From the IMG/VR virus record IMGVR_UViG_3300042478_001433: a stretch of 64,000 bases of DNA. One strand, written 5' to 3'. The notes below the pieces were generated by a model that was given only the letters and a program-made list of their open reading frames with translations, searched no databases and was not told the origin of the DNA. Source of the DNA: an uncultured virus (IMG/VR IMGVR_UViG_3300042478_001433) (Duplodnaviria; Heunggongvirae; Uroviricota; Caudoviricetes). The stretch's first letter is position 1. Each line of letters begins with the position of its first letter. The position numbers and the translations under genes were made by a program. This document shows positions 1 through 44,187 of this stretch, piece by piece.

Positions 1-126
1 CTGCGGTTTCGGCCTCGCGGGCGAGGGCGTTGCGGGTGATGTCGTCCATGGGATCTCCGGTTGGTGGGTGAGCCCCCGGCGGGACTCATGGGTGCCGGGT
101 GAAGGCCACCACCGGAGCGGGACGAC
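1..126 (+). repeat. Exact 126-bp direct repeat of 44924-45049
   Basis: Identical up to position 126; first mismatch is 127 (G) vs 45050 (T). Confidence 0.95.
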
Positions 127-275
127 GCCCGCGAGTATTCAGTTTTCAAGGATCAATGTTGTGCCGGGCCAACCGGCGGTGCAGGCTTACTTAGGCCGTG
201 TTGGGCTCGTGGTAACGCGTCGTGTACCCGGTTCCGCGGAGGTTCGGTTTTGCGAGGGATCCTCTCCCCTCGTGA
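51..275 (-). promoter_or_regulatory. Structured 5' leader of the leftward early operon, with boxB/boxA-like element
   Basis: Several hairpins; GATCCTTGAAAACTGAATA (136-154, minus strand) follows hairpin 163-177; conserved at 44974-45198. Confidence 0.6.
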
Positions 276-279
276 TGCC

Positions 280-307
280 ACTGTACACCATGCGCCGCCG
301 TGGTCAG
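280..307 (-). promoter_or_regulatory. Sigma70-type early promoter CTGACC-N16-TACAGT
   Basis: Same ATGGTGTA-containing motif recurs at 44404, 45203 and 54970. Confidence 0.65.
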
Positions 308-660
308 CCCTGTGCAACATCTCTTAACAATGCCTCTGCATCGCTGACCGAGCGCGCCACACCAGCAATGCCGCCAGCCGCCTGGACTGCATCCAGCCAC
401 TGCTGCTGCTCAGGGCGCAGTCTGCCGGTAGCGGTCTTGACCTCTATAGAGGTGAACACGGCCACCTGCTGACCGACCATCTCTGGCGTGATGGTGACCG
501 TGCGCCAGCCGATCAGGTCAGCGCTGCCCTTGCATAGGCCGAACTGCACTGGGCGACCGTTGGCGTCCTTGAGCGTGCCGGTGTTGTTGCGGAACAGGCG
601 CGTGTCACCGTTGCTGCAGGCAATGCGGATGTGCTGCTGGATGGATTGTTCAGAAAGCAC
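304..660 (-). CDS. VRR-NUC domain nuclease
   Basis: RLFRNNTG...GSADLIG...IEVKTATGRLRPEQ motifs; GTG start inferred from the B homolog. Confidence 0.85.
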   Translation of the reverse strand: MLSEQSIQQHIRIACSNGDTRLFRNNTGTLKDANGRPVQFGLCKGSADLIGWRTVTITPEMVGQQVAVFTSIEVKTATGRLRPEQQQWLDAVQAAGGIAGVARSVSDAEALLRDVAQG

Positions 661-1138
661 TGCTATTTGATGGCGAAAAATAAAAGGCAAAAACACGCTT
701 ATGAGCATTTGCAAGTGTTTTATTTTCCATTTCAACCCACTCAACTATATCGCTGGCGTAATTGCAAATATCATTTGCGTTTATAACTGCCCATTCAAAT
801 GGCAGCAAAACCCATTTTGATTTGCCGCGCTCATCAACATGCGTCAATCGAGGCCGAAAGCGTTGACCGTCCCACCTGGGGCCCATGCTCCATTCTTGGT
901 CGCATCCATAAAAAGTAGATTCTCTAAGCAATCGTTCCCATGGGCTGCCATCATAATTTAAGCCATGAAAATTAATTGATTTATAAAATGAACATGCCGC
1001 GTAATCTGTCGCGGATTGCGCATTGCCTGGCAGCTCATCCGCGCCATCTATATCTTGCGCTTCGCACCAAGCCTCAACAACTGCGGCAATAGCATCAGGC
1101 AGCATCATGCCTTCAAGATCAATGCAAAACTTGCTCAC
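650..1138 (-). CDS. Hypothetical protein, AT-rich, present only in A
   Basis: GTG overlaps the helicase stop; absent between the same genes in B. Confidence 0.65.
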   Translation of the reverse strand: MSKFCIDLEGMMLPDAIAAVVEAWCEAQDIDGADELPGNAQSATDYAACSFYKSINFHGLNYDGSPWERLLRESTFYGCDQEWSMGPRWDGQRFRPRLTHVDERGKSKWVLLPFEWAVINANDICNYASDIVEWVEMENKTLANAHKRVFAFYFSPSNSSAF

Positions 1139-2496
1139 TTGACTTTGCTCCACTGTCCTTTGGTTTGGCGTGCGGCTAAGACGTGCTTTGCCCATGCGAC
1201 TGGATTTTTGTATCCCCGCTGCTGACCTAGTGCGATCAACTGCTGCAGCGTTTGAGCGCCGCTTTGCTCACGCCGCTTGGCGCGCATGGCTAGCTCCACC
1301 AGCTCCCCATCCACCTGCTGCAGCTCGCGTGCCTCGGCAGCGAACATATGCCCACACTCACCGCATTGCTTGGCCTGGCTGGCCATGGCGGCAAAGCAAC
1401 TGGGGCACACCTTGACGCTGGGTGCTTTCTCCCGATCCCGCTTGCGCTCGCCGTCCAAGCTCCACTCGCGCGGCTCTAGGTGATGGCCAAGCCGGAGCGT
1501 ATTGCCGACGTGATCCAGCACCACTGCTGCAGCCTTGCCGGGCGATGGCCTAAGGCACCGGCCGATCATCTGCAGGTGCAGGCTGGTGGATGCAGTGGGT
1601 CTGAGCAGGATGCAGCCGCCGACTGATGGAACATCGACGCCCTCGCCGATCAGTGCGCAGCTGGTGAGCACCTTGATCCGGCCAGTGCCTAGCGCCTGCA
1701 GCAGGTCACGCCGCTGCTCGCTAGTCATGCTGCCGTCAATACTGGCCGCGGCGATGCCTGCTGATTGGAAGAGTGCTGCCACTGCTTCCGCGTGCGCCAC
1801 AGAGCAGCAGAACGCGATTGCAGTCTGGCCCGATAGGTGCTTGCGGTAGTGGCCTAGGCAGTCGCCCATGATCGTGCCGACACGGTGCTCCGCCTCACGG
1901 GCGTCAAAGTCACCCATCCGCTTGCGCAGGCCGGTGGTGTCAAAACCCGGTGGCGCTAGCACCTTGGCCGCGGCGAGGTAGCCGTTGTCGGTTAGCCAGG
2001 CAGCGCTGGGACCTTCCACCATGACCTGATAGTGCTCGCCAAGGCCGCGGCCGTCGAGCCTGATCGGGGTTGCGGTGACGCCCAGCAGATGCGATTGGTG
2101 GAAATGCTCCAGCGTTTTGGCCCAGGTGCCGGCATTGCTGTGGTGGGCCTCGTCGATGATCACCAGCTGAAAGAAATCAGGCGGCAGTTTGTGCAGCCTG
2201 CGGGCAAGCGTCTGGACGCTGGCAACCTGCACTGCTGCGGATAGATCCATGCCGCGGTTGGCGGCGATCACGCCATGCGGCATCGGCAGTGAACGGCAGG
2301 CTTGATCCAGCAGCTCCTGCCGGTGAACGGCGATCAACACGCGGTTGCCCTTGCGAGCAGCGGATTGGGCGATGTGGCTGAAAATCACCGTCTTGCCGCC
2401 GCCGGTCGGCAGCACTGCCAGCACCTTGCGGTGGCCTAGCTGGTATTGCAGGCGGATGGCGGTGATCAGCTGTTGCTGGTAGGGGCGGAGGTTCAT
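1135..2496 (-). CDS. SF2 DEAH-box helicase with C-terminal Zn ribbon
   Basis: PTGGGKT, DEAH, TAT and QMIGR motifs, plus CPSC...CGEC. Confidence 0.92.
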   Translation of the reverse strand: MNLRPYQQQLITAIRLQYQLGHRKVLAVLPTGGGKTVIFSHIAQSAARKGNRVLIAVHRQELLDQACRSLPMPHGVIAANRGMDLSAAVQVASVQTLARRLHKLPPDFFQLVIIDEAHHSNAGTWAKTLEHFHQSHLLGVTATPIRLDGRGLGEHYQVMVEGPSAAWLTDNGYLAAAKVLAPPGFDTTGLRKRMGDFDAREAEHRVGTIMGDCLGHYRKHLSGQTAIAFCCSVAHAEAVAALFQSAGIAAASIDGSMTSEQRRDLLQALGTGRIKVLTSCALIGEGVDVPSVGGCILLRPTASTSLHLQMIGRCLRPSPGKAAAVVLDHVGNTLRLGHHLEPREWSLDGERKRDREKAPSVKVCPSCFAAMASQAKQCGECGHMFAAEARELQQVDGELVELAMRAKRREQSGAQTLQQLIALGQQRGYKNPVAWAKHVLAARQTKGQWSKVK

Positions 2497-2825
2497 AGAG
2501 GCAGCTCCAATTGCGTGCCATCTGCAGGTGTTCCGTGCATGGCAATTTGGGCCATAGTCACGGCACGGCGTTGCCGCTCGTATGCAGGCCGCGCATAGCC
2601 CAGCTGGTAAAGGTGCAGATCGTTCTGCAGCAAGGCAATGGCGACAGCTCGCCATGACGGCGCGCGGCCTGACGCAGCTACTTTGGCCGGCACCTCATCT
2701 GGAATCTCGTGCGAATAACAACGGGCTTTCCACGTGCGCACGTATTCCGAGACTCTGGCGGTAGCGCATCTCCCAGGCGCGAATGGCTCGATCCGCTTGT
2801 TGGTTTGCCAATGTCCGTTGCTCAT
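2493..2825 (-). CDS. Small protein resembling the DUF3440/IbrA C-terminal segment
   Basis: YVRTWKARCY..IPDE...APSWRAVAIALLQND parallels IRYWGRVG...SWKRFAITMLKND in 4027-5346. Confidence 0.65.
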   Translation of the reverse strand: MSNGHWQTNKRIEPFAPGRCATARVSEYVRTWKARCYSHEIPDEVPAKVAASGRAPSWRAVAIALLQNDLHLYQLGYARPAYERQRRAVTMAQIAMHGTPADGTQLELPL

Positions 2826-3120
2826 CGGTCAAAAGTCCCCATGCTTGTCTAATGATGTCTTCAGGGCATCGAAGGGCCAGCGCGCAGGCTGCGTGCCCGA
2901 TCCATGCTTTGCGGTTGAGGTTGTAGTCAGTCAGTGCATTGATGCAGCTGTTGGGCCATTCCACGGTGACCCGTTGCATGTAGCGCCCGTAAAGGCGGTG
3001 ATTGCCGGTGAAGATCTGTGCGCGATACAGAGCAATGCGTCGATTTGGCACATCGCCCCACATGTTGTAGCCGATCTCTTCCCAAGTATCAATGGGCAAC
3101 CAGATCCTTTTGAGCTTCAC
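2695..3120 (-). CDS. Hypothetical protein in the IbrAB-like cassette
   Basis: Overlaps both neighbours; Trp-rich (WEE...WPNSC...NRKAWIGHAAC); GTG start inferred. Confidence 0.7.
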   Translation of the reverse strand: MKLKRIWLPIDTWEEIGYNMWGDVPNRRIALYRAQIFTGNHRLYGRYMQRVTVEWPNSCINALTDYNLNRKAWIGHAACALALRCPEDIIRQAWGLLTDEQRTLANQQADRAIRAWEMRYRQSLGIRAHVESPLLFARDSR

Positions 3121-4030
3121 GTTCGAGATCCTCTGTGATGTTGTCGATCTGCTCAACGTCCCATGCCTTGCTGAAATCCTTGCCAAGGAATAGCGAGGCT
3201 AGACCGGTCACCTGTTTCAGGCGCAACAGCTCATCAGGGCTCATGCCAATATGCTTGCAAATCCATGCATCGCCTTTGCCCATCTCGATCAATTCGGCAA
3301 CGATCACGCTCATCAGTTCGATGTTGTGTGAACCACGAGCGCGGTTGTGACGGATGGTTGACGCCATGCGGTCATGGAGCTCCTTGCGGAGTACAACCAC
3401 TGGCAAGCGGCCACCTTCGCGTTCACGGATGCGTTGGCTGTTTTTTAGCGTCAGGTATCGATGAAAACCGTCAACGACCACATAAAGGTCACGCTCGGCA
3501 TCATGCACGACAACGACAGGTTGCGTGTAACCATCTTCCCAGATGGATGTTTCGAGTAGCGCCATTTCAGGCGGCGCCACAGAGTTGGGGTTGTAATCGT
3601 TGGCGGTAACTTTCTCAATAGGAATACTGCGAACAGAATAGACCGGGGATCGCCAAGGGTAAGAGTCGTTCTCGTCATGGAGTTCATTGCCTTTAAGGGG
3701 TGGGTTGAATACGCAGATCAACGTGGTGGGCTCTAAGGCTTCAAACGTGTGAGCATCGTGCTTGTCAAGCACGTAGGTCACGTCAGGGCCAATCGCGATG
3801 ATTTCTTGCGTGGTTTCATTGATCAGCAGACCTTTGCCGCTGACGCAGTAGCACGTTTCAAGGTGGTGTTGATAGTGCCAGCGGTGCGGCTTGCCAGGGT
3901 GAATAACGGTTTTAGTCATGCTGTAGCCCATGCCGTCGGTTTCGACGACAAGCCGATGACTGGTGAAACCACCACGTGGGCATTGCACAACGCGGTCATC
4001 AGGAAGTTGTGCGGCGTTCAGGATCTTCAT
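3089..4030 (-). CDS. EctC-like cupin fused to IbrB/ParB-like domain
   Basis: N-terminal HYQHHLETCYCVSGKG, YVLDKHDAH and CVFNPPLKGNELH match ectoine synthase; C-terminal ANDYNPNSVAPPEM, VVDGFHRY and STIRHNRARG match IbrB/YbdM. ATG overlaps the IbrA stop. Confidence 0.88.
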   Translation of the reverse strand: MKILNAAQLPDDRVVQCPRGGFTSHRLVVETDGMGYSMTKTVIHPGKPHRWHYQHHLETCYCVSGKGLLINETTQEIIAIGPDVTYVLDKHDAHTFEALEPTTLICVFNPPLKGNELHDENDSYPWRSPVYSVRSIPIEKVTANDYNPNSVAPPEMALLETSIWEDGYTQPVVVVHDAERDLYVVVDGFHRYLTLKNSQRIREREGGRLPVVVLRKELHDRMASTIRHNRARGSHNIELMSVIVAELIEMGKGDAWICKHIGMSPDELLRLKQVTGLASLFLGKDFSKAWDVEQIDNITEDLEREAQKDLVAH

Positions 4031-5346
4031 TTGGCGGAACGGTTGAGGACTTGGCTGTACTTGCGTTGGATTGATCTCTGGCGGCGCTGCTGCTCTTGCG
4101 TTGGCGCCAGGCCCAAGTATTTGCAGGTGTGGTCGTTCTTGAGCATTGTGATAGCAAACCTCTTCCAAGATGTGACCATGCTGTTGTGGCATGGCAGATC
4201 ATCAAGGTGGTCAGGCGGCACCTTGATCACTACGCGGCGCAAATTGTTGCCGCCGTGGCGCGTGGTGCCATTGATGTAAAAGCGAATGCCAATACGGCCA
4301 AGAGCTTCAATAATGGCATCAGGAAGACCGCGCCCCACCCTGCCCCAGTAGCGGATTGACTGGATGAAGCGCTGCTTAAAATTTGCGCTTGACTGATCCG
4401 GCAAGGTGGCCAGCAGGAACTTCACAAAGGATTTCCAAGTGTGGCCTGCGGGCAGCTTAAAGGATTTGTAATCAAGCTGTTTGCCGTAGGTAGCCATGAA
4501 GTTAGCACCGCCAACTCTCGCGCAAAGCCTCGCCCAGACCTGCGGGTCGATTACCCGATACATAGCAAGACTGGATTTGGACTCTGACATAAACGGAGAA
4601 GCAACCCGCATCTTTTTGATAGGAATGCCAGCCATGTAAAACACGTCATAAAGGTTGTTGTAATCCCATCCAAATTTGGCGTTAGCGGTCCAGATGTCCT
4701 CTGTGCGCCAGTCATAGATCGGATAGCAGTTGTAGGTATGCGCCGTGTTTTTCTTGGTCCACATGCGGCCAAGCATGGTCTCTTTCTCTTGATTCAGGAT
4801 GGCCCGAAAACGGTTGAGCGATTCAACGGTGCGAATGCCGATCAAGTTTGCGCAAGGCTCGCCATGGCTGTACCACTCCGCAAACATGTCCCAGAAAGTG
4901 GCGTAATCCATGTTCTCGATGAACAGGTCGCCAAAGGGATGGTTTTGGAGATTGACGATGTAATCCTGCTGCGGCATGGGGCGAATCCAGCGGTGACGGT
5001 CGGCTTCGCCCCAGCACTGCCAGTCAATTTCGTAGGAGGAAACGGTGCAAGGCAGGGTGATGGGCAGGCAGCACCAATAGATGTCAAGGATGTCCCGGTT
5101 GGCTTGGAGGATGCGATGCATGAACTCCTCGCTATGGGTGTAATTGGCCTCGTTGTCCATAATCTGAACGCCAATTTTGATCGGCAGCTTGCGCTCTCGC
5201 ACGTAGTCGCAAACAAGATTCAGAAGAACTCCGCTGTCCTTGCCACCAGAGAAGGAGACGTACACACGGGTAAAATGCTGAAAGATAAAGTCGAGCCGCT
5301 CAATAGCGGCGTCGTAAACATTTTGCTCTAAATAGGTTCTGCTCAT
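4027..5346 (-). CDS. IbrA/YbdN-like PAPS-reductase-fold (PP-loop) protein with DUF3440
   Basis: SFSGGKDS, GIRTVESLNR, YPIYDW and MRVASPF motifs. Confidence 0.9.
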   Translation of the reverse strand: MSRTYLEQNVYDAAIERLDFIFQHFTRVYVSFSGGKDSGVLLNLVCDYVRERKLPIKIGVQIMDNEANYTHSEEFMHRILQANRDILDIYWCCLPITLPCTVSSYEIDWQCWGEADRHRWIRPMPQQDYIVNLQNHPFGDLFIENMDYATFWDMFAEWYSHGEPCANLIGIRTVESLNRFRAILNQEKETMLGRMWTKKNTAHTYNCYPIYDWRTEDIWTANAKFGWDYNNLYDVFYMAGIPIKKMRVASPFMSESKSSLAMYRVIDPQVWARLCARVGGANFMATYGKQLDYKSFKLPAGHTWKSFVKFLLATLPDQSSANFKQRFIQSIRYWGRVGRGLPDAIIEALGRIGIRFYINGTTRHGGNNLRRVVIKVPPDHLDDLPCHNSMVTSWKRFAITMLKNDHTCKYLGLAPTQEQQRRQRSIQRKYSQVLNRSAK

Positions 5347-5513
5347 GAGTTGGGTAGATACTCTTTTGTTACGTCTTGAATTTCAAGAAGATCGCAACCT
5401 TTGTATGATTTGGCAAAGCCAATCCGCAATTCCGCCTCAGTAGCGAATTGAGTGGTGTTAACCACGCATTTGCCCCAAGGGCGTTGGTAGGTGATTCGGT
5501 AAATAGGGTTCAC
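5343..5513 (-). CDS. Small hypothetical protein
   Basis: Stop overlaps the IbrA start; GTG start inferred. Confidence 0.5.
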   Translation of the reverse strand: MNPIYRITYQRPWGKCVVNTTQFATEAELRIGFAKSYKGCDLLEIQDVTKEYLPNS

Positions 5514-5536
5514 AAGCAGGCGCAGCCGTGGGGTGC

Positions 5537-5572
5537 CTTGCAACCTTAGCGACTTTGGCTAAGCTTGGCAAG
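5537..5572. promoter_or_regulatory. Palindromic divergent promoter/operator
   Basis: TTGCAA-N16-TAAGCT on + overlaps TTGCCA-N17-TAAGGT on -; counterpart at 49315-49350. Confidence 0.6.
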
Positions 5573-5587
5573 CTTTCAGCCGAAGCC

Positions 5588-5725
5588 GTGCACCCCATCT
5601 CAGTTTTGTTCACGCCGCAACAGATGCAGTGGCTAGACCGGCAACGCGCTGCTGGCCTGTCCCGCAGCGCAGTAATCCGCCTTGTGGTTGAGGAAGCCAT
5701 GCGCCGCGCCAAGGAGTCCGAGTGA
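5588..5725 (+). CDS. Ribbon-helix-helix (CopG-like) regulator
   Basis: ISVLF...WLD...SRSAVIRLVV pattern; stop overlaps the primase start. Confidence 0.7.
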   Translation: MHPISVLFTPQQMQWLDRQRAAGLSRSAVIRLVVEEAMRRAKESE

Positions 5726-7791
5726 ACCTGCGCGATGAGTTAAACCGCCTGCCCGATGGGTGGGGATACGTTGCTGTTGACGGCCAGAAGCGGCCGTATC
5801 AACTCAAGTGGCAGGACAACCCACTAGATAAAGCCAGCCTGCAGGCCGAACTTGATTCCGGTCGCGCTCGTGCTATCGGTGTTTGCTGTGGTGTGCCATC
5901 TGGTGGCCTGCTGTTCCTAGACCACGACGGCCGCAGCGCTAGCACCATCCTTCGCGACTGGGGTTGTCCCATGTCGTCGTTGCCGCGTTCGTGGACTGTT
6001 ACCTCCGGTCGTGACGGCAGGTTTCAGGTCATCTACCGCGTACCAGAGGAGTATTGGCATGGCATCGCCACACGCAAATACAAGTCAGGTGTCACCGACT
6101 CCGACGGCAAGCCCGAGCAGGTGGAGCTCCGTTGGACCGGCTGCCAGTCTGTTGTAGCCGGCGCGCACCCAACCACCAGCGGTTACCGCTGGGTAGCCAA
6201 ATACAGCCCCGAAGACCTCGACCTAGCCGAGGCGCCGCTTTGCCTGATCGAGCGGATGCTTAAGCCAGTGGCCGAACCGGTGGTCTTGCCACCAGTAGCG
6301 CATGGCGCTGACGATGCCGCCCGGGCGCGTTCTTACCTCGAAGCCCTGGCCAGCAGTCGCGCTGATGACTACGACGACTGGCTAGCCGTTGGGATGGCGC
6401 TCCATAGCGTTGGCGATGACGCCTTGCTAGACGACTGGGAGCAGTGGTCAGCGCAGTCCGGCAAGCACAAGCCCAGTGATTGCCAGCGCAAATGGCGCAG
6501 CTTCAAGAAATCCGGCATCAGCCTTGGCACCCTTGGCGACATGGCCAAGAAAGACGGCTGGCGACCCCATCGGCGTGAGCCGCAGCGCAGGGTTGCGACA
6601 GGCGGCGGCAGTGGTGACAGCGATGCCAATGCGCCGATCATCACGAAACCGGAAAAGCTGGAAACCGCAGAGCTATTGGCACTGCTACGCAGTCAAACCG
6701 ATGAGATCCGCTACAACGTCTTCACCCAACAGATCGAAATCAAGGGCAAGGTCATTGATGGCGCCGACCGCTTTTACCTGAAGCTGGCAGAGATGGGCTA
6801 CAAGGTCGGCAAGGAGCTGGCTATTGACTGCCTTGTGCAGGTCGCCAACGAGAACCCCTACGACCCCGTAACCGAGTACCTGACCCATTGCGAGCAGCAC
6901 GTTCAGCCGGCTTACATCGACGGCCTTGCTACCGCATACCTTCGCCCAGAGGACCAAGGCGGTGAGACCACGATCTACGACGAGATGCTTAAGCGCACCA
7001 TGATCGGTGCTGTTGCTCGTGCCTTTGATCCTGGTTTCAAGCATGATACCGCTTGCGTGATCATGGGCGATCAAGGTGCATACAAATCCAGCTTCTGGGG
7101 CTGTTTGGGTGGTCCGTTTTACTCAGATGCGTTGGGTGACATCAGCACCAAAGACGACGTAATGGTGCTCCATCGGTCATGGATAATGGAATGGGCGGAG
7201 CTTGATCACATCACCAATCGCAAGCACGCTGGACAAGTCAAGGCGTTTTTATCGCAGGCGGTAGATCTGCTCCGCGTGCCATATGGCAAGGCTGTTGAAG
7301 CATTCCCAAGGCGTGGCATCATTGTTGGCACCACCAATAAAACCGCTGGTTTTCTTGTAGATGAAACCGGCAACCGTCGTTTTTGGGTGATACCAACAAC
7401 CCGCACACAGGTGGATCAAATCAATACCGCCATGCTCTTAATGGAACGTGATGCCATCTGGTCTGCAGCGGTTCATGCCTACCGCAACGGTGAAACCAGC
7501 CGGCTGCCGGCTGCCATGGAGCTTGCCGTTCAGCAGGAAAACGATGCCTACATGATCGAGTCGCCATGGCGTGCCGCCATCCTTTCCTACCTCGCTGATC
7601 GCCGCAGCACTGACCTGCTGACCTCCGAGGAGATCCTCGCCAAGGCCATCCAGAAACCCATGGAGCGCCAGTCCAAGGCCGACCAGATGCAGGTGGCTTC
7701 GATCCTGAAGGAGCTGGGTTGGGCGAAACGCCGCGAATCGACCGGCAAGAGGCGCTGGTACTACCAGTTGGACGGCCAACATGCCGGCTAG
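5722..7791 (+). CDS. Primase-polymerase + PriCT-2 + VirE-type helicase
   Basis: FLDHDG Prim-Pol motif, YDDWLAVGMALH PriCT-2 motif, GDQGAYKS Walker A, DETGNRRF. Confidence 0.9.
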   Translation: MNLRDELNRLPDGWGYVAVDGQKRPYQLKWQDNPLDKASLQAELDSGRARAIGVCCGVPSGGLLFLDHDGRSASTILRDWGCPMSSLPRSWTVTSGRDGRFQVIYRVPEEYWHGIATRKYKSGVTDSDGKPEQVELRWTGCQSVVAGAHPTTSGYRWVAKYSPEDLDLAEAPLCLIERMLKPVAEPVVLPPVAHGADDAARARSYLEALASSRADDYDDWLAVGMALHSVGDDALLDDWEQWSAQSGKHKPSDCQRKWRSFKKSGISLGTLGDMAKKDGWRPHRREPQRRVATGGGSGDSDANAPIITKPEKLETAELLALLRSQTDEIRYNVFTQQIEIKGKVIDGADRFYLKLAEMGYKVGKELAIDCLVQVANENPYDPVTEYLTHCEQHVQPAYIDGLATAYLRPEDQGGETTIYDEMLKRTMIGAVARAFDPGFKHDTACVIMGDQGAYKSSFWGCLGGPFYSDALGDISTKDDVMVLHRSWIMEWAELDHITNRKHAGQVKAFLSQAVDLLRVPYGKAVEAFPRRGIIVGTTNKTAGFLVDETGNRRFWVIPTTRTQVDQINTAMLLMERDAIWSAAVHAYRNGETSRLPAAMELAVQQENDAYMIESPWRAAILSYLADRRSTDLLTSEEILAKAIQKPMERQSKADQMQVASILKELGWAKRRESTGKRRWYYQLDGQHAG

Positions 7792-7992
7792 ACGGTCAGA
7801 CGCCTTGCGCTGCAGTCGATCTCAGCCGCCTAACCAGCGGACCGACCCACTTCCCTTACAGAGTTACCCCGTACTCCCCCCCTACCCCCTCTTTACTTAC
7901 TTACTACTAGAGGTTAGGAGGTTAGACGGTTAGGAGAAGCCTTGGCCCGCAAGGAATCTCGCCGTCCTAACCCCAAAACCCTGGTTGGACGT
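7785..7992. repeat. Putative replication origin with TAGGA/TAGACGG direct and inverted repeats
   Basis: gaggttaggaggttagacggttaggag plus inverted ccgtcctaacc; equivalent array at 51558-51782. Confidence 0.55.
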
Positions 7993-8009
7993 ATGCTGCC
8001 GCCTCACCC

Positions 8010-8303
8010 ATGGAACCAATGCAAGAAATCAAAGTCCGCTTCCAGCCCGAAGACCTCACCGCCTTGGATCAGCAGGCCGCATCACTCGGCACCAGCCGCG
8101 CGCAGCTGATCCGTGACCGTTCCTTAAGCAGTGGGGTTGCAGGGTTGACCACAGCCGACTACCATCGCCTCGTGTCCGGTGCTGCTGCCCACATGCGTGG
8201 TGATCTGTCGCACCGACACGTTGAGCATCTCGTTGCGTATGTCATCACAAGACTCGATCAGCATTCCCGCCAAGCAGTCGCCGGTGATCAACCGGCTTCA
8301 TGA
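8010..8303 (+). CDS. RHH-like DNA-binding protein
   Basis: EIKVRF...LDQQA...SRAQLIR; homolog at 51821. Confidence 0.65.
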   Translation: MEPMQEIKVRFQPEDLTALDQQAASLGTSRAQLIRDRSLSSGVAGLTTADYHRLVSGAAAHMRGDLSHRHVEHLVAYVITRLDQHSRQAVAGDQPAS

Positions 8304-8451
8304 ATCCATCACCCAGGCATTGGCTTACGCCCATGCCATCCGCGACAACGCACAGGACGACAGCCAGCCGATCCCGTTGGAACTCGTTGGTTCGTTTCAA
8401 GTTGATTGCGACGCCATCATCAACGCCTTATCCGAAGCTGCTGCACAATGA
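8239..8451 (+). CDS. Conserved hypothetical protein
   Basis: Homolog at 52044-52253 (IPAKQxPVINRLHE). Confidence 0.7.
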   Translation: MSSQDSISIPAKQSPVINRLHESITQALAYAHAIRDNAQDDSQPIPLELVGSFQVDCDAIINALSEAAAQ

Positions 8452-9494
8452 AATTCACCTGCTCACAGGCCGACCTGTCCCATGCTCTCCGCGCTGTATC
8501 CCGCGCTGTAGGCACCGGGCGCTCTGGCCATCCGATCCTTGCTGGCGTACTCCTCGCTGCTGATGCCGGCGCCGTACGCATCACCGCTTACGACCTCGAC
8601 CTTGGCATCAGCACCGCCATCACCGCTGCTGTAAACACCGCTGGCGCTTGCGTGGTACCCCATCGGCTCCTGGCGGACATCACAGGCCGTCTGGACGCTT
8701 CTGAGGCGCTGTCGCTGGCTGTGGACGGTACACGCATCACGCTGACCGCTGCAGGCGGCTCCTACAGCCTCTCCGTGGCCTCTGCGGAGGATTTTCCTGC
8801 ATTGCCCGTGGTGGATGCTGCTGCAGGCGCTGCTGTGGACCTCACAGCGCCATTGGCGGCCGTATTGCCTGCTGCTGCCACCGACGCGTCTAAGCAGCTG
8901 CTGACCGGCGTGCACGTCACCATCGCAAGCGGTGCCTTGCGCCTTGAGGCCACAGACGGCCATCGACTTGCCGTGCGTACCGCCGACACCGATGCCGCAG
9001 ACCTCGACCTCGTGTTACCCGCTCGCACCCTGCAGCAGATCCGTCAGCCGGCCACCATCACCGCAGACAAGCATCAGGCCGCTATCGCCCTTGCTGATGG
9101 CACCATGATCGTCTCGCGGTTGCTGGATGGCATCTACCCCAACGTGCAAGCGCTGGTACCCGCCAGCTACGAGCACACGGCTACCGTTAGCCGCCTTGCC
9201 ATGCTGGCTGCACTTGAGCGCGTAGCCGTCATTGCCGACAGCCACAACAGCGTCGTCAAGCTCACCACCAAAGCCAAGCGACTCACCATTGCCGCCGAGG
9301 CCGAAGCCAACAGCGGCTCAGAGTCCATTGCCATGGATGGCACGCTGCCCACGCTTGCCTTCAACGTGCATTACCTCATTGATGCCTTTAAGCATCTCGA
9401 CGGTGATACTGCTACTATCAGCGGCAACACCTCAACTACCCCTGTAGTATTTGAGCCTGGTCTTACACTGGTAATGCCAGTTCAGGTACGCTGA
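8448..9494 (+). CDS. dnaN: DNA polymerase III beta sliding-clamp homolog
   Basis: HPILAGVLL, EATDGHRL, SRLLDGIYP, FNVHYLID and LVMPV motifs. Confidence 0.9.
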   Translation: MKFTCSQADLSHALRAVSRAVGTGRSGHPILAGVLLAADAGAVRITAYDLDLGISTAITAAVNTAGACVVPHRLLADITGRLDASEALSLAVDGTRITLTAAGGSYSLSVASAEDFPALPVVDAAAGAAVDLTAPLAAVLPAAATDASKQLLTGVHVTIASGALRLEATDGHRLAVRTADTDAADLDLVLPARTLQQIRQPATITADKHQAAIALADGTMIVSRLLDGIYPNVQALVPASYEHTATVSRLAMLAALERVAVIADSHNSVVKLTTKAKRLTIAAEAEANSGSESIAMDGTLPTLAFNVHYLIDAFKHLDGDTATISGNTSTTPVVFEPGLTLVMPVQVR

Positions 9495-20777: not shown

Positions 20778-23549
20778 GTGTCTGTCGTCGCTAATGTTGC
20801 CATTAACGTTGACAGCCGCAATGCTGTTAGCAAACTGCGCGAGGTACAGTCGCAGGCAAGCGCGACGGAGAAGGCATTTGGTGCGCTGCAGTCCGCTTTG
20901 GGCGCCTTGGGCGCTGGCTTTGCGCTGACAAAGGTCATTGCAGATGTTAAAGAATTAGATACCAATCTGCGGCGTCTAAGCACTGTCGGCGTTGATGTAG
21001 GCAAGATCAGTCCAGCTCTTTCAAAGCTAAGTGCTGAGCTAGGCGGTGTCGCAAGCAAAGCTGAATTAGCGGCAGCCTCGTATCAAGCGGCATCCGCAGG
21101 TTTTAGTGATACTGCAGGCAATGTCAATATCCTGCGCGCTGCAACCAAGGCTGCCGTTGGCGGCCTGGCTGATACGCAAGCTGTAACCGAAGTTCTAGTC
21201 AAGACTTTGAACAGTTATGGAATGTCTGGCAACCAAGCCATACAAGTAACTGACAGTATTTCTAAAGCGGTAGAGCTTGGCAATCAAGAATGGTCGGACT
21301 ACACTAGCCAGTTAGGCCGTGTTGCATCTATTGCAGCGCTTGCTGGTGTCAGCCTTAATGAAGTCAATACATTTATTGCTGCTGCTACCAAGAATGGCGC
21401 CACGGCTGAAATTGCATTTACCGGCCTTGGCGCAACTCTGAACACACTGCTACAACCTACCAAGGAAAGCCAAGAGGCTGCCGCGCAACTGGGCATTCAA
21501 TGGAACTACAGCGGGTTGCAAGCCAAAGGATTTACAGGCTTAATGGCTGAACTGGCTGTAGCTATTGAAAAAGACAAAGAAGCATCTGCGCGTCTACTTG
21601 GAAGCCAAGAAGCAATGCGTGGTGCATTTGCCGCTGCATCCAAAAATGGCGCAGACTTCAAAAAAATTCTTGAGCAAATTGGCGACGCATCTGGTAAAAC
21701 AGACGCTGACTTTCAAACCATGAAAGGCAGCCTTGAGAATACACTCAAGGCATTAGACACGGCATTCAAAAATCTTAGCGAAGCATTAGGCAAAGCCTTT
21801 GGGCCAACACTTGTCATTGTTATTCAAGACGTCACCAAAGGCGTAAATGCTTTTGCCGGTGCAATGAATGCCGTGCCGCAACCTGTAATGGACGCAGCCG
21901 GTGCGGCAGCAAAGGCAGTGGCTCAAATGCTGCTACTTAAAAAAGCCATTGAAGCCATTATTGCATTGCGGCTTGGCATTGCCGCAATGTTTGCTGCCAC
22001 TGCAACAGGTGCGGCGACTGCTGCCACTGCAGCATCTGGTTTGAGTATGAATATGCGATATCTGCAAGGTTCTATGGCGGCGGCGCAAACGCAGGCCACT
22101 GGATTAGTTGGCGTACTTAAAAATCTGGCTGCATTTGGTATCATTACAGTTGGCATCAATCTTGCGGTTAGCGGCTTGCAGCAAGTTATTGCAGCCAACT
22201 TGGAAATTGCAAGGTTGCGTGGCGAGCGGCAGGCCGGTGGGGCTGCGGCAATTTATCAAGGCGCCGCACCGATTGAATCTAAACAAGCTGCACAATCCAC
22301 GCTTGCTGCCATACAAAAAGAGCGCCAGCGGCTCAACTCTGCCGGAACAATTGCCACGGGAATGCTTGGCCCTCTAGCGCCACTTGTTGGCGGCATGTCA
22401 CCAGGCGCTAGGGCTGATCGCTTGGGTGTATTGCGTGAACGCGAGTTACGTGCTGCCGGAACAGCTGCGCTACCCACCCGCGTGGCACCCAATGCCATGG
22501 GTACGCAAGTCGACGACATGGTAGGTGGCGGCAATGGCGGTGGCGGTGCAGGTGGTGGCCGCGGTGGCGCAGCAAGCAAAGCAGCCAACGAAGCAGAACG
22601 CGCCGCAAAAGCAGCAGCCCAAGAAGCCGCAAGGGTCAAAGATGTCATCCGCGATAGGTTGGCAGAGGGCCAATTTATGCGTTTTAAATCGGAGATGCAG
22701 GACAGAATTGCAAATGCAGAAATTGCTGGCGACAAAATGCTGGCAGCGCGATTGAATGGCGCACAGCGTGAACTGGACATTCAATACCAATATGCGCAAG
22801 AGTTAGCAAAAGAAAAAGACATAGACGCTCAAAGGGCAATTATCTTTGAAGGCCAAGTCGCCTTGGTCGCCAATCAGCGCGAGGTTCAGCGAGAACTGAA
22901 TAAACTGCAACAGCAAAACGACCAAGACAGGCTTGCATCGCTGCAAAAAGCCATTGAAAAACAATATGAACTTAATGCAGCTGTGCAAAATCAACTGCGG
23001 CTTGCCGATGGTGTTGCCAATACGCTGGGCGAAGGATTGGGATCAGCCTTTAATGCCTTGATTGCTGGCGCGCAAGGATGGGAAAAAAGTCTGCAGCAAA
23101 TTGCGTCTGGTGTTCTTCTTGATATTGCCAATCAACTAATCAGGATCTTTGTCATTGAGCAGGCAATCAATGCCATCAAGGCATTCCTTACGCCGTTTAG
23201 TCCAGCAACGCCACTTGGCGCAGGCGGCGGAACGGTTGGCAAGTTTGGAACACTTGGCCCGAACTATGGCATCCCACAGCGCGCCAAAGGCGGCCCGGTA
23301 TCCAGCGGCCAAACCTACATGGTGGGCGAGCGTGGCCCTGAACTGTTCGTGCCTGGCCGCAGCGGGTCCATCGTGCCCAACGACAAGCTGGGCAGCGGCG
23401 GCAGCACCAGCGTTGTAGTAAACGTCGATGCCAGCGGCAGTAAAGTAGAAGGCAACGACCAACAGGGCAACCAACTGGGCCGCGTCATTGCTGCCGCCGT
23501 CCAGCAAGAACTCATCAAACAAAAACGCCCTGGAGGCTTGCTGGTGTAA
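20778..23549 (+). CDS. Tape measure protein
   Basis: 923 aa, Ala-rich helical, TP901-like core, C-terminal GGPV..YMVGERGPELFVP. Confidence 0.9.
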   Translation: MSVVANVAINVDSRNAVSKLREVQSQASATEKAFGALQSALGALGAGFALTKVIADVKELDTNLRRLSTVGVDVGKISPALSKLSAELGGVASKAELAAASYQAASAGFSDTAGNVNILRAATKAAVGGLADTQAVTEVLVKTLNSYGMSGNQAIQVTDSISKAVELGNQEWSDYTSQLGRVASIAALAGVSLNEVNTFIAAATKNGATAEIAFTGLGATLNTLLQPTKESQEAAAQLGIQWNYSGLQAKGFTGLMAELAVAIEKDKEASARLLGSQEAMRGAFAAASKNGADFKKILEQIGDASGKTDADFQTMKGSLENTLKALDTAFKNLSEALGKAFGPTLVIVIQDVTKGVNAFAGAMNAVPQPVMDAAGAAAKAVAQMLLLKKAIEAIIALRLGIAAMFAATATGAATAATAASGLSMNMRYLQGSMAAAQTQATGLVGVLKNLAAFGIITVGINLAVSGLQQVIAANLEIARLRGERQAGGAAAIYQGAAPIESKQAAQSTLAAIQKERQRLNSAGTIATGMLGPLAPLVGGMSPGARADRLGVLRERELRAAGTAALPTRVAPNAMGTQVDDMVGGGNGGGGAGGGRGGAASKAANEAERAAKAAAQEAARVKDVIRDRLAEGQFMRFKSEMQDRIANAEIAGDKMLAARLNGAQRELDIQYQYAQELAKEKDIDAQRAIIFEGQVALVANQREVQRELNKLQQQNDQDRLASLQKAIEKQYELNAAVQNQLRLADGVANTLGEGLGSAFNALIAGAQGWEKSLQQIASGVLLDIANQLIRIFVIEQAINAIKAFLTPFSPATPLGAGGGTVGKFGTLGPNYGIPQRAKGGPVSSGQTYMVGERGPELFVPGRSGSIVPNDKLGSGGSTSVVVNVDASGSKVEGNDQQGNQLGRVIAAAVQQELIKQKRPGGLLV

Positions 23550-35667: not shown

Positions 35668-36717
35668 ATGAGCAACTTCCTCGCTGCCGCCAAGTGGACC
35701 GATAAGCAGGCGCCACAGCCACATCAAATTGCGGCGTGGAATACGGCATGGCAATGGCTCACCCTTGGGCAGCAGGCGGAATTCCTAGAAATGTTCCGTG
35801 CTGCACCGGTAATGCCTGCAGCGCCATGGCTTGAGCCAGCGCTCAAGGTCATCCGCGAATTTGAAGGCTTGCGGCTTGAGGCATACCGATGCCCAGCTGG
35901 CGTGCCAACCATCGGCTATGGCTCCACGCGGTTGATTGATGCACCAGTGCGCATGGGCGACAAGATCACGCAGCAGATGGCCGAGGAGCTGCTTTGCGAT
36001 CAAGTCGAAAACCTATTCGCCCCTGGCCTATTTGGCCTACTGCCTTTGATGAAGGCATGGAAACCCAATCAGCAAGCTGCGCTGGTGTCTTGGGCTTTCA
36101 ATGTAGGACTTGGTGCCGTAGAGGAGTCCACGTTGCGCAAGCGGCTGGCGGCTGGCGAGGCGCCCAGCGTAGTTGTGCCAGAGGAATTGCCCAAGTGGGA
36201 TAAAGCTGACGGCAAAACGCTAGAAGGGCTGGCGAGGCGCCGTGCCGCTGAGGTGCGGTTATTTACTGGCAATCTTGAGCATCAACAGCAACCGGCCAAG
36301 TTGACGCCATCTAGTTCGTTTGCATCGCGCATCACGCCACACATCACGCTAGGTGAATTCGCATTGAACCAAGAGGCGCGGCGCTTTGATGCGCAGCATC
36401 AAGTGAACACAGCGGCCGAGCTTGCTGCATTCATGGAGCGGGCACGGTCTGCATTTGGTGGCAAGCCTGTGATCATCACCAGCGGCTATCGGCCAGCGGC
36501 AATCAACCGATCAGTAGGTGGCGCCAGTAGCTCAGAGCACCTGTACAACGCGCCTAACGTGGGCGCCGTGGACTTTTACATCCAAGGCGTTGACATCAAT
36601 AAGCTGCAGGCATGGTGCGACAAGGAATGGCCGTATAGTCTTGGCTACGGCGCACCCAAGGGCTTTGTGCATCTTGGCATTCGCGCTGGCCGCCCTAAAG
36701 TCCGCTGGGATTATTGA
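35668..36717 (+). CDS. Endolysin: GH24 lysozyme + peptidase M15A
   Basis: EFEGLRLEAYRCPAGVPTIGYG...GLARRRAAE, then ITSGYR..N..VGGASSSEH..AVD..FVHLG. Confidence 0.9.
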   Translation: MSNFLAAAKWTDKQAPQPHQIAAWNTAWQWLTLGQQAEFLEMFRAAPVMPAAPWLEPALKVIREFEGLRLEAYRCPAGVPTIGYGSTRLIDAPVRMGDKITQQMAEELLCDQVENLFAPGLFGLLPLMKAWKPNQQAALVSWAFNVGLGAVEESTLRKRLAAGEAPSVVVPEELPKWDKADGKTLEGLARRRAAEVRLFTGNLEHQQQPAKLTPSSSFASRITPHITLGEFALNQEARRFDAQHQVNTAAELAAFMERARSAFGGKPVIITSGYRPAAINRSVGGASSSEHLYNAPNVGAVDFYIQGVDINKLQAWCDKEWPYSLGYGAPKGFVHLGIRAGRPKVRWDY

Positions 36718-37232
36718 TGATCATTCCTGACCACGAGATTTGCCGCCTGTGCAAGCAACATGCAATGGTGGTGCCGTATAACGCAGAACTGCAGAACCCA
36801 TCATCCCTTGATGTGCTGCTCGGCGACAACCTAATGGTGGAAGTGGAGCACACTGCAGACCTGCAATTGCTAAGCATTGCGCACCATACAGAGGCGGATC
36901 CTTACTGGCTGGCGCCTAGTGAGTTTGCGCTAGCTGAGACGCAGGAGTTTTTTAACCTGCCAGATCACATTGCCGCGCAGTTTGTACTGAAGTCCAGCCG
37001 CGCAAGGTCTGGCCTAGAGCACCTGCTTGCTGGATACTGTGACCCAGGCTGGCACGGCAGTCGGCTCACATTAGAACTACACAACAGCCGTCGTTATCAC
37101 AACATTGCATTGTGGCCCGGCATGAAGATTGGCCAGATGGTGTTTCATGCCATCGCTGGCACGCCAGAGCGCACCTATGCAGTAACCGGACGGTATAACA
37201 ACGATTCAATCGTCACTGCCTCGCGCGGATAA
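36717..37232 (+). CDS. dcd: dCTP deaminase
   Basis: NPSSLD, KSSRARSG, AGYCDPGWHG, TLEL and PGMKIGQM motifs. Confidence 0.9.
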   Translation: MIIPDHEICRLCKQHAMVVPYNAELQNPSSLDVLLGDNLMVEVEHTADLQLLSIAHHTEADPYWLAPSEFALAETQEFFNLPDHIAAQFVLKSSRARSGLEHLLAGYCDPGWHGSRLTLELHNSRRYHNIALWPGMKIGQMVFHAIAGTPERTYAVTGRYNNDSIVTASRG

Positions 37233-37370: not shown

Positions 37371-37626
37371 GTCTTGGGGCCAGTGGATGATTGTGGAACT
37401 ATCAGTAGAGGATCAACTACGGATAGAAGGGCAGGCAAGAGCTGCCCTTGCCCATGATGACCCTAGCCAAGTGGCACATTTATGCGCGTCGCTGATTCGT
37501 CAAAATGCGTATCAATCTAAGCTAATCCAGCAGGCAACTGGTCATATTGCCAAACTAGAAATGGAGCAGTTTTTAAGCTGCTCCAAACCAAAGCGATGGT
37601 GGCAGCGACTGCTACGCCACCAGTGA
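37369..37626 (+). CDS. Helical protein, candidate NblA-like
   Basis: ELSVEDQL...SQ...L...L.RQ spacing resembles NblA. Confidence 0.45.
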   Translation: MSWGQWMIVELSVEDQLRIEGQARAALAHDDPSQVAHLCASLIRQNAYQSKLIQQATGHIAKLEMEQFLSCSKPKRWWQRLLRHQ

Positions 37627-40998: not shown

Positions 40999-41330
40999 TC
41001 AGGTAGCGCCTCCAGTGCGCGGCGGATGGGTTCGGCCATTGCTATCGCTCCCTCCGTGGGAATAAGAGCAATCAAGCGGTCAAGCTCTACTTGAGCCTGT
41101 TCCTTCAAGCTCGGTGGCTTGGGGCGGCGGGATGCACGTAGGGGTACGGTGTAGCCCCTACTGGCAAACCACTCACAGCAAGCTTCTAGCTCTTGGTCGG
41201 CGCCCCATTGGGCGGCGCGAGCGGCGATGTGTTCGTCGCTCAATGCAACTCGAACTGGTGTTCCTTCATGCCAGATTTCGGCCACCCACGCCTGCATCAG
41301 CTCAGTCGGTGGGGTAATAGGATGAGTCAT
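40995..41330 (-). CDS. Hypothetical protein (MTHPITPP...WGADQELEACC)
   Basis: Coupled ORF. Confidence 0.65.
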   Translation of the reverse strand: MTHPITPPTELMQAWVAEIWHEGTPVRVALSDEHIAARAAQWGADQELEACCEWFASRGYTVPLRASRRPKPPSLKEQAQVELDRLIALIPTEGAIAMAEPIRRALEALPE

Positions 41331-41569
41331 TTCCTGGCCTCCTGCTCAAGCCACTCGGCCGCCTCGAGCAGCAGCCGGCGCATGTACCAATCGGCTTTGC
41401 CAAGATCTTCTACGGCATTGCCCTTGTGCTCAGCACGCCATAGGTACTTAAACACTTGGCCCTTGCAGTAAGCCTTAAAACCTTCGGTGCCAAGTGCAGC
41501 CTTAATGGCCTGGATGCATTCAATGTCGCCTTGCTTGTAATGCGGTGGGTGGTTTACTAGGTCGGTCAT
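41327..41569 (-). CDS. DUF3310 (SaV-like) protein
   Basis: DLVNHPPHY...IECI.AI...KYLWR..HK...EDL.KA.WY motif. Confidence 0.88.
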   Translation of the reverse strand: MTDLVNHPPHYKQGDIECIQAIKAALGTEGFKAYCKGQVFKYLWRAEHKGNAVEDLGKADWYMRRLLLEAAEWLEQEARK

Positions 41570-41603
41570 TGTGGAAAGGTGGCCGTTAGGCCACCAGTGC
41601 GCG

Positions 41604-44130: not shown

Positions 44131-44150
44131 GGTTCTCGAGTTGGGGTGAT

Positions 44151-44180: not shown

Positions 44181-44187
44181 GTGGGGG

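Follow-up and report, generated by a model that had tools for sequence, protein, structure and literature searches.

What do IbrA and IbrB contribute to the phages that encode them? We approached this question through a cassette of minus-strand genes at positions 2493-5543 of a 64,000-nucleotide DNA stretch from an uncultured virus (IMG/VR IMGVR_UViG_3300042478_001433), hereafter the window, which joins the genome of one phage (phage A, 1-44923) to the opening 19 kb of a related, collinear phage (phage B, 44924-64000) at 69-92% nucleotide identity. The cassette comprises, in order, a small leader open reading frame (ORF) termed orf66, IbrA, a fusion of an EctC-like cupin to an IbrB-type ParB/Srx domain, and two small genes, g3 and g4; together with the superfamily 2 (SF2) helicase gene that follows, these form one translationally coupled operon. 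An original prediction, made by a model from the letters of the sequence, held that the cassette replaces a DNA methyltransferase (MTase) and modifies phage DNA against restriction. Two observations bear most directly on this proposal, namely (i) the alternation of the cassette with MTases at a single genomic slot and (ii) a conserved tail on g4 that resembles β-clamp-binding peptides. Both are consistent with a multi-subunit enzyme that would act on replicating phage DNA and install a covalent modification serving the purpose of the slot MTases, a reading on which we are evenly divided.

Homology between phages A and B ends at the helicase start codon (2496) and restarts at 5710, which is 12 nt before the primase start. 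The intervening stretches, A 2497-5709 and B 46917-49488, share no homology, and their flanks are the homologous helicase (77% nucleotide identity) and primase. The left border of this slot is the SF2 (ResIII/Helicase_C) helicase at 1135-2496 on the minus strand (Pfam ResIII, 2.1e-29; true start ATG 2496), and the right border is the PriCT/VapE primase-helicase at 5722-7791 on the plus strand (Pfam VapE-like, 2.8e-60; PriCT_2, 7.2e-20), beside which lies a small ribbon-helix-helix (RHH)-like ORF (5528-5725). In phage B, the slot gene at 47041-49299 (minus strand; 752 aa) had been predicted to encode an SNF2-helicase/N4-N6 methyltransferase, and Pfam confirms an SF2 helicase::N6_N4 MTase fusion, with PF01555 at 51 bits against a cut-off of 26.7 over aa 480-737 (N6_N4_Mtase, 2.4e-13) alongside Helicase_C and ResIII; PADLOC matched the same protein as MTase_II (2e-20).

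We then surveyed this slot in 80 IMG/VR relatives located through their primase, classifying the interval from helicase start to primase start by tblastn with representative proteins (E ≤ 1e-8, at least 50% identity, at least 40% coverage). Pfam checks covered a single example of the split type, of the stand-alone type, and of the MT-A70 type and, for the SNF2::MTase type, phage B's gene. Forty-nine loci with both borders in divergent orientation were counted, the other 31 being cut by contig ends or different in gene order. A DNA MTase occupied 24 of the 49 slots in four architectures: an SNF2::N6_N4 fusion (18 slots), a split SNF2 with a 321-aa N6_N4 MTase (4 slots), a stand-alone 385-aa N6_N4 MTase (1 slot), and an MT-A70 MTase (1 slot). 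IbrAB occupied 13 slots, 11 with the cupin-type cassette (two of these, L008 and L009, represent the phage of the window itself) and two with a second type, in which an IbrA at 36% identity accompanies a ParB::g3 fusion. The remaining 12 held neither gene set, being empty (5), carrying an HNH gene only (3), encoding a 343-aa protein (3), or staying unclassified (1); none of the 49 held both. The 343-aa protein, for which Pfam has no family, makes up a third type of slot occupant (L017:5682-6713, L081, and L083).

Whole records gave the same picture. The N6_N4, D12, and C5 MTase families (PF01555, PF02086, and PF00145) were absent from all three complete IbrAB-type genomes, DUF3440 was absent from all five MTase-type records, four of them complete, and no MTase was found among the 59 scanned ORFs of phage A. 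The predicted exchange of cassette and MTase at one slot is thus borne out and proves more general than the comparison of A with B, and the survey bears on mutual exclusivity at this locus in the same direction. This exchange is the strongest contextual support for the proposed DNA modification; it is evidence of context, not of function.

The second observation concerns g4 (2493-2825, minus strand; 110 aa), which had been recognized as a small protein resembling the DUF3440 C-terminus. Indeed, g4 matches phrog_15645 (1.6e-4) and, by BLASTP, IbrA residues 378-414 (E 0.002), and it aligns to the last ∼70 residues of type-2 IbrA proteins along the pattern W..RGY...IPDEAP...PSWRR...LLRND....LG, so that it can be described as a free-standing IbrA C-terminal tail module. 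The window's own IbrA is of type 1, which differs from the common type 2 by a 27-residue insert and a diverged tail. Because this diverged tail and a free g4 occur together, type-1 systems, on these alignments, carry the tail module twice, once within IbrA and once as g4.

At its C-terminus, g4 ends in the hexapeptide QLELPL (2496-2513, minus strand), a putative β-clamp-binding motif. QL[SD]LF and QLxLxL are the two classic forms of such motifs, and they tether to the clamp enzymes such as Pol II/IV/V, Hda, and MutS, with DNMT1-PCNA as an analogous case. A string of the form Q-h-x-h-[FLW] or Q-h-x-h-x-h lies in the last 12 residues of 52 of 55 g4 homologues (56-95% identical), most often as QLELF (20) or QLELPL (14), and the linker preceding it varies freely; the other three homologues have QFELPL, QHDLF, and QHRLF-type endings. 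Proteins of the g3 family carry the motif in the last 20 residues of 25 of 150 representatives, as against 3 of 843 body windows and a mean of 2.1 (maximum 6) over 200 shuffles of the tails. Moreover, several type-2 IbrA proteins end in strings of the QLKIF, QINLL, or QITLW type, and, judged by these endings, the clamp motif moves between subunits across systems. Like the known clamp-tethered enzymes, IbrAB systems present a terminal short linear motif behind a variable linker; unlike them, they place it on the small adaptor g4 (or, in relatives, on the tails of g3 or IbrA), where binding is a prediction. In one locus (L088), IbrA comes directly after a clamp gene.

Phage A encodes its own DNA polymerase III β sliding clamp (8448-9494, plus strand; Pfam DNA_pol3_beta domains 1-3), and we modeled it in complex with g4. 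The resulting ipSAE was 0.62 (0.60, 0.62, and 0.64 in three runs), compared with 0.00 for the best of three controls; 116 of 157 solved complexes attain this mark, as do 2 of 215 mismatched pairs. Contacts agreed between runs to at least 82%, while g4 itself was modeled with a predicted local distance difference test score (pLDDT) of 46-48. In the model, g4 residues 99-110 contact residues 169-174 and 343-348 of the clamp, in a cleft made of its TDGHRL loop and the MPVQVR residues at its C-terminus. The model therefore suggests that the g4 tail docks in the cleft of the phage clamp, and this clamp-binding-type tail in turn suggests replicating DNA as the substrate.

Clamp-motif-like peptides also occur in other occupants of the slot. 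In the 385-aa MTase (L052:3729-4886), QLGLGL spans residues 376-381, the 343-aa slot protein (L017:5682-6713) begins with MQQISLL, and the ParB::g3 fusion of the second IbrAB type (L010:5430-6602) begins with MADQLQLAL. No terminal peptide of this kind was seen in the SNF2::MTase, 321-aa MTase, or MT-A70 slot proteins.

The 5' end of g4 is dual coding, since its first 44 codons lie within the last 43 codons of g3 in another frame (2695-2825, minus strand; 131 nt). Both frames are open, and the g4 start MS[NK]xxWQ is conserved, in the window and in two cultured phages, Mycobacterium phage Gaia and Pseudoalteromonas phage XCL1123. Across eight related phages, third-position diversity is lower inside the overlap than outside it (g3, 0.154 against 0.352; g4, 0.235 against 0.457). 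The 131-nt overlap is conserved across phages of Actinobacteria and Gammaproteobacteria. The annotated start of Gaia gp107, the g4 counterpart, lies too far downstream, and the g4 gene of XCL1123 (22845-23075 of its record) is unannotated.

IbrA (4027-5346, minus strand; 439 aa) combines a PP-loop ATP pyrophosphatase domain of the 3'-phosphoadenosine-5'-phosphosulfate (PAPS)-reductase fold with a DUF3440 domain, as indicated by matches to PF11922 (181.8 bits against a cut-off of 25; aa 240-421; 1.4e-53), PF01507 PAPS_reduct (35.6 bits against a cut-off of 22.5; 1.2e-8), and phrog_2302 (2.1e-109). For conservation analysis, we aligned 26 of the 30 complete IbrA ORFs from 31 loci, dropping L091, L097, L099, and L103, which have long N-terminal extensions or fusions; L107, which carries an N-terminal extension, was also excluded. 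The PP-loop SGGKDS (aa 33-38) retains S33, G35, K36, D37, and S38 in all 26 sequences, and D64, E66, G170/R172/E175/S176/R179, N206, Y208, P209, and D212 are likewise invariant. The sole invariant cysteine is C408 in the tail, and there is no cysteine cluster. An AlphaFold2 (AF2) model of IbrA reached a pLDDT of 82.8, and in Foldseek only its N-terminal domain found matches, the best being the FAD synthase PAPS domain, CysH, CysD, TilS, and TtuA; a search against PDB sequences gave no match. From the invariant PP-loop and phosphate-binding residues, together with these N-terminal fold matches, IbrA can be taken as an adenine-nucleotide α-hydrolase that most likely adenylates a substrate.

The likeness of IbrA to the DNA-phosphorothioation enzymes DndC and SspD, to which the original prediction had appealed, holds at the level of the superfamily and fails at that of the family. 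The DndC family model TIGR03183 gave 21.5 bits against a cut-off of 290.4, and PADLOC returned DndC at 28.5 bits over only 64 residues (aa 168-231) and BrxP at 17.6 bits. Assimilatory PAPS reductase CysH carries the C-terminal catalytic motif ECGLH; the IbrA translation contains no ECG or CGLH string, and its tail reads NDHTCKYLG.

The next gene (3089-4030, minus strand; 313 aa; phrog_2159, 6.5e-78) fuses an EctC-like cupin (nt 3641-4030, ∼aa 1-130) to a ParB/Srx domain (nt 3089-3640, ∼aa 131-313). The cupin matches Pfam Ectoine_synth PF06339 (125.1 bits against a cut-off of 27; 2.6e-36) and NCBIfam NF009806 (132.5 bits against a cut-off of 128), and it aligns to the entire EctC chain of PDB 5bxx (E 6.1e-23). 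The excerpted text of PMC6344544 gives Glu57, Tyr84, and His92 as the iron ligands of Paenibacillus lautus EctC and Trp21, Arg25, Asn38, Thr40, Tyr52, and Glu57 as residues that bind N-γ-acetyl-diaminobutyrate (N-γ-ADABA). The three ligands correspond to E58, Y86, and H94 of the cupin, and all three are unchanged across 54 fusion proteins (64-85% identical). R26, T41, Y53, S24, C106, and F108 likewise match EctC Arg25, Thr40, Tyr52, Ser23, Cys104, and Phe106. Among the six substrate-binding residues, four are kept and two differ: Trp21 is replaced by F22, and Asn38, which contacts the carboxylate, by T39. Across the 54 fusion proteins, all of the listed cupin residues are invariant, F22 included, whereas T39 is present in at least 90%. 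Judged from these residues, the metal-dependent condensation or hydrolysis chemistry of the cupin is probably intact, and its substrate is probably something other than N-γ-acetyl-diaminobutyrate. Ectoine is an unlikely product, since no acetyltransferase or aminotransferase family corresponding to ectA or ectB was found among the 59 scanned ORFs of phage A.

In the second half of the fusion, the ParB_N match (22.4 bits) lies under its cut-off of 26.3, and the ParB-MTase family phrog_498 matches at 1.2e-9. The ParB/Srx domain has a loop that is defined by DGxHR, and the loop residues D187, G188, F189, H190, and R191 (DGFHR) are invariant in the 54 fusion proteins, with an RHNRARG block also retained. 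Proteins of fusion length that match the cupin part form 318 clusters in a large protein collection, and PF06339 and PF02195 occur together in nearly all of 120 clusters among the matches listed.

The third component, g3 (2695-3120, minus strand; 141 aa, GTG start), is the Trp-rich protein of the original prediction, with 7 Trp in its 141 residues. It has no Pfam, PHROG, NCBIfam, or PADLOC family, and its 625 homologous representatives (E ≤ 1e-3; library clustered at 50% identity) are also without a Pfam family. AF2, run with 91 sequences, predicts an all-α protein of seven helices (pLDDT 94; predicted template modeling score 0.85). Comparison with PDB gave a best Foldseek E of 1.3 and a best VIA-align Z of 4.2, which assign no fold and do not imply a novel one, and the ESM Atlas returned no usable match.

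The genomic company of g3 is more telling than its fold. Scanning prokaryotic genomes, one for each species, yielded 34 loci, in metagenome-assembled genomes (MAGs) ranging from Planctomycetota to Clostridia, Saccharibacteria, and Thorarchaeota. IbrA adjoins g3 in all 34 and ParB in 32, the other two being cut by contig ends. In 12 of the 34, ParB and g3 align in a single frame, indicating a fusion, as they do in the viral loci L010 and L020, while in a Coxiellaceae MAG (L099:420-1994) g3 is fused to the N-terminus of IbrA within a single open frame. On these alignments, g3 is the C-terminal domain of long IbrB proteins, able to come free as a separate protein, and counts as the third core component of the system; its fusions to both ParB and IbrA suggest a single physical complex. 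Four of the 34 loci (L088, L094, L096, and L113) contain the cupin, in the window's gene order and with a free g4 after it; sufficient flanking sequence was available for 16 of the 34, and their neighbors are replication or recombination genes (clamp, DnaB, SSB, RecT, ERF, or Pol III α). In a Chlamydiae MAG (L097:5338-6906), a g4-like module is fused to the N-terminus of IbrA within a single open frame. In Microcystis phage Mwe-JY13 (L123, 4560-4985), the g3 homologue, which ParB and IbrA flank, bears the annotation 'ParB/sulfiredoxin', in keeping with an IbrB C-terminal origin.

The four minus-strand genes originally placed between the helicase and the primase are all real, being conserved far beyond chance; three of their boundaries have been corrected, and orf66 (5343-5543, minus strand; from the ORF list, start codon uncertain) is added as a fifth. 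ATGA stop/start overlaps couple orf66 to IbrA, IbrA to the fusion, and g4 to the helicase, and the fusion overlaps g3 by 32 nt, in addition to the g3/g4 overlap described above. We rejected a fusion start at 4192 (3089-4192), as the 54-codon extension has in-frame stop codons in Gaia and XCL1123, and take ATG 4030 as the start. The GTG start of g3 at 3120 has AGAGGA just ahead of it, its added N-terminal residues are conserved in Gaia, and most database homologues are called at the 141-aa length. By tblastn, all 16 matches of orf66 lie in IbrAB-bearing relatives, of both cassette types, and none in MTase-type loci; Gaia, XCL1123, Amjad_SA, and the 34 g3 genome loci gave no match, and neither did Pfam, PHROG, or PADLOC.

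A promoter/terminator scan of positions 1000-6000 found no minus-strand terminator-like site inside the cassette and one promoter-like site, where 2.2 were expected, with no sigma-70-like site in the divergent region. A divergent RHH/primase promoter had been predicted there; gene orientation agrees with it, and the consensus scan does not. Phage A encodes a sigma-70-family factor with regions 1.2, 2, 3, and 4 (37612-38499, minus strand), which may be the reason for the absent host-type consensus at the divergent region.

Is the cassette a new system, as had been suggested? A tblastn search of 50,697 phage records with the fusion found 227 with an IbrB relative, many of them annotated IbrA/IbrB, and four records with at least 80% query cover: Mycobacterium phages Gaia (two records) and Nebkiss (64% identity) and Pseudoalteromonas phage XCL1123 (58% identity). 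Gaia (gp103-gp107), Nebkiss, and XCL1123 share the order IbrA, EctC::ParB, g3, and overlapping g4, and in Gaia and XCL1123 g3 is 56-57% and g4 44-48% identical to the window's. Gaia gp103 is annotated 'PAPS reductase' and gp104 'ectoine synthase/ParB multidomain protein'; XCL1123 is annotated in the same way, but with cupin and ParB as two adjacent ORFs (L002 5142-5534 and 5536-6072), which reflects either a natural split or a frameshift. Gaia differs from the window in that an additional gene, gp105, separates the fusion from g3, and in having a g4 without the terminal QLxL motif; the g4 of XCL1123 ends in QMEMF. A pairing of g3 with gp105 and of g4 with gp106 was rejected for lack of similarity, the partners being gp106 and gp107. 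Since the same cassette is already annotated in Gaia and XCL1123, and its fusion belongs to the family of 318 clusters, the label of a candidate new system does not stand: the window's cassette is a member of an existing family, not itself a new kind of system.

Within that family, E. coli IbrA/IbrB (from the ECOR-9 island; YbdN/YbdM in K-12) and the PHROG 2302 + 2159 pairs share the arrangement of a PAPS_reduct + DUF3440 protein beside a ParB/Srx protein. The window's system differs from the E. coli pair in that (i) an EctC cupin is added at the N-terminus of IbrB, (ii) the C-terminal domain of IbrB is split off as g3, (iii) a second, free tail module with the clamp motif is present as g4, and (iv) IbrA is of a distinct subtype. 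Relative to EctC itself (P. lautus 5ONM-5ONO; S. alaskensis 5BXX), the cupin has the iron ligands in common and differs by its ParB fusion and its Phe/Thr pocket. The original prediction had noted that IbrA/IbrB lack settled biochemistry, and our literature search, which left most subscription journals outside, agrees, finding no paper on the biochemistry of the pair or on an EctC::ParB fusion; the excerpts of PMC4490671 and PMC8813620 name IbrA/IbrB only under the label 'co-activator'.

The closest parallels in DNA modification come from Dnd, in which the ParB-family DndB is paired with a PAPS-reductase-fold enzyme, and Dpd, in which the ParB-family NTPase DpdB accompanies a DNA-modifying enzyme, according to the excerpted portions of PMC10853773 and PMC12839542. 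IbrAB shares with DndB/DndC, SspD, BrxP, and DpdA/DpdB this pairing of a ParB-family NTPase with a DNA-modifying enzyme and, in the case of Dnd, the PP-loop fold. The similarity is at the superfamily level, however, and IbrAB lacks the Cys cluster, the desulfurase, DndD/E, and the tRNA-guanine transglycosylase (TGT) enzyme. Moreover, IbrAB resides on phages within replication modules, whereas Dnd and Dpd are found in host defence islands.

How might such a cassette work as a DNA-modifying enzyme? We envisage that the operon would be transcribed together with the helicase early in infection. IbrB and g3 would form a DNA-engaging ParB/Srx NTPase module, analogous to DndB of the Dnd and DpdB of the Dpd systems, and IbrA would serve as the ATP-dependent activator, adenylating an oxygen of the base, the backbone, or a precursor. 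The cupin would make or mature the transferred group, possibly an amidine or amide-type substituent formed by condensation or hydrolysis. Through g4, the complex would hook onto the phage (or host) β clamp, travel with the fork, and mark new phage DNA, a step that resembles the clamp-recruited maintenance methylation of eukaryotes. The mark would then shield the DNA from restriction, standing in for the methyltransferases of sister phages. In its most specific form, which we advance tentatively and regard as possible rather than probable, IbrAB would be a fork-coupled DNA hypermodification machine in which a clamp-docked ParB/PP-loop complex adenylates nascent phage DNA and, in the cupin subtype, an EctC-type iron enzyme builds or closes an amidine-type substituent; the modification would be of an undescribed chemical class and could stand in for methylation against restriction.

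Several points weigh against a DNA-modifying role. The family owes its name to the original IbrAB genetics, which reportedly concerned activation of eib and an effect on prophage gene expression. The shared slot may be a plain accessory-gene hot spot, given that 12 of 49 slots hold neither gene set; one cassette per slot would be expected of any hot spot, and the loci come from related phages that are not independent samples. In the literature searched, no modified base or backbone is reported for any IbrAB phage, phage A encodes no sulfur donor or other obvious group donor, and IbrA, with a single invariant Cys, lacks an Fe-S cysteine cluster. The docking result may reflect likeness to clamp-peptide complexes that have already been solved, with the fold of g4 itself uncertain at a pLDDT of 46-48, and clamp tethering fits a role in repair or replication as well. 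The prediction that the cassette modifies phage DNA against restriction gains from the MTase exchange and the clamp-type tail of g4, but sharing a slot is a matter of context.

The same observations can be read without DNA as the substrate. IbrA might adenylylate, and the cupin cyclize or hydrolyze, a soluble metabolite, so that the cassette would be a small-molecule or nucleotide enzyme set for counter-defence that makes an inhibitor or destroys a host signal or cofactor, with ParB/Srx acting as an NTPase, not as a DNA reader. The structural matches of IbrA do include FMN adenylyltransferase/FAD synthase and the ATP sulfurylase CysD, EctC is a small-molecule enzyme whose entire catalytic core is retained in the cupin, and ParB/Srx proteins are discussed as nucleotide-degrading effectors in the excerpted text of PMC10853773. 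A clamp-type tail in 52 of 55 g4 homologues, enriched also on g3 tails, is nevertheless hard to explain in this way, as are the alternation with DNA MTases and the steady embedding in replication modules, and we consider a soluble substrate unlikely. The co-activator label suggests instead that IbrB, as a ParB-type DNA clamp, and IbrA turn on phage or prophage genes and leave DNA chemistry unchanged; the ParB family does include DNA-sliding regulators. Against this, the enzymatic sites of both IbrA and the cupin are fully invariant, the genes sit in a replication operon with translational coupling to the helicase, and the slot alternates with MTases, not with regulators, while an effect on expression could itself follow from DNA modification. 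Because of the clamp tail and the MTase alternation, which lower it as they do the soluble-substrate account, purely regulatory action seems to us quite unlikely.

A clamp-tethered enzyme could also process nascent DNA, by removal, repair, or nicking, and leave no protective mark. The clamp-binding motif and docking model suit such a replication or repair accessory, its neighbors include a helicase, VRR-NUC, RecT, and a PD-(D/E)XK nuclease, and nuclease or nicking activity is described for ParB/Srx members in the excerpted text of PMC12839542. The slot is dispensable, however, with 5 of 49 examples empty, its alternative occupants are MTases and not repair enzymes, and a PP-loop adenylating enzyme with an EctC-type cupin is no known repair combination; because of the empty slots and the kind of the other occupants, we judge this role improbable. 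Finally, IbrA might be a DndC/SspD analogue that places sulfur in the backbone, in a Dnd/Ssp-like phosphorothioation. Such a role could draw on the local similarity to DndC (28.5 bits in PADLOC, 21.5 bits to TIGR03183) and BrxP (17.6 bits), and on the pairing of DndB with a PAPS-reductase-fold enzyme in Dnd (excerpted text of PMC10853773). The TIGR03183 score, however, stands far under the family cut-off of 290.4. IbrA has a single invariant Cys and no Cys cluster, no cysteine desulfurase, DndD, DndE, or SspB/C was found among the 59 scanned ORFs of phage A, and phosphorothioate chemistry offers no place for the cupin, so that we regard phosphorothioation as highly improbable.

As to the source of the cassette, a 45,032-bp IMG/VR virus record with a 108-bp terminal repeat and a completeness rating of 100% matches window positions 1-45031 at 99.99%, and because of this match to a terminally repeated, complete record, phage A can be taken as a whole phage genome of ∼44.9 kb. 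A 108-bp stretch that is identical at window positions 1-108 and 44924-45031 forms the join between A and B. Word depth in the A and B parts was two- to eightfold apart in four of four runs, and none of the contigs listed over 41000-49500 across the junction covers the full 8.5 kb; for these reasons, the join may be an artefact of assembling two phages that occur together rather than a true tandem. In lake-water metagenomes from 2020-2024, 20 runs contained at least half of the words sampled, and none of the 24 runs listed is recorded as RNA; megablast of window positions 1-9000 against isolate phages gave no match.

Phage A is a tailed phage with terminase, portal, capsid, tail, and lysis genes, RecT, and a PD-(D/E)XK nuclease, and with a VRR-NUC nuclease besides the SF2 helicase, PriCT/VapE primase-helicase, and β clamp already described; family scans of its ORFs recognized no integrase or DNA polymerase. 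Between VRR-NUC and the helicase, phage A has a 181-aa ORF without a family (650-1195, minus strand) that is missing from phage B, and A 655-1263 versus B 45578-45686 marks a second small indel between the two phages. A dCTP-deaminase-like gene after the lysis genes (36714-37232, plus strand) was considered as a partner of the cassette and rejected, as relatives of both slot types have it.

IbrA/IbrB pairs occur in hundreds of sequenced phages and prophages, usually under the labels 'PAPS reductase', 'ParB partition protein', or 'co-activator of prophage gene expression'. The slot studied here amounts to a natural experiment, in which sister phages differ chiefly by carrying either a DNA methylase or IbrAB, and the conserved tail of the clamp-docking type provides a mechanistic handle; together, they yield a specific, testable hypothesis. 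The presence of the same cassette in the cultured phages Gaia (on M. smegmatis) and XCL1123 (on Pseudoalteromonas marina) offers a good entry to an old open question. If DNA modification by IbrAB proves true, a PP-loop enzyme, a ParB protein, and a cupin assembled on the clamp would represent a new enzyme logic for phage anti-restriction, and a widespread misannotation as sulfur metabolism would be corrected.

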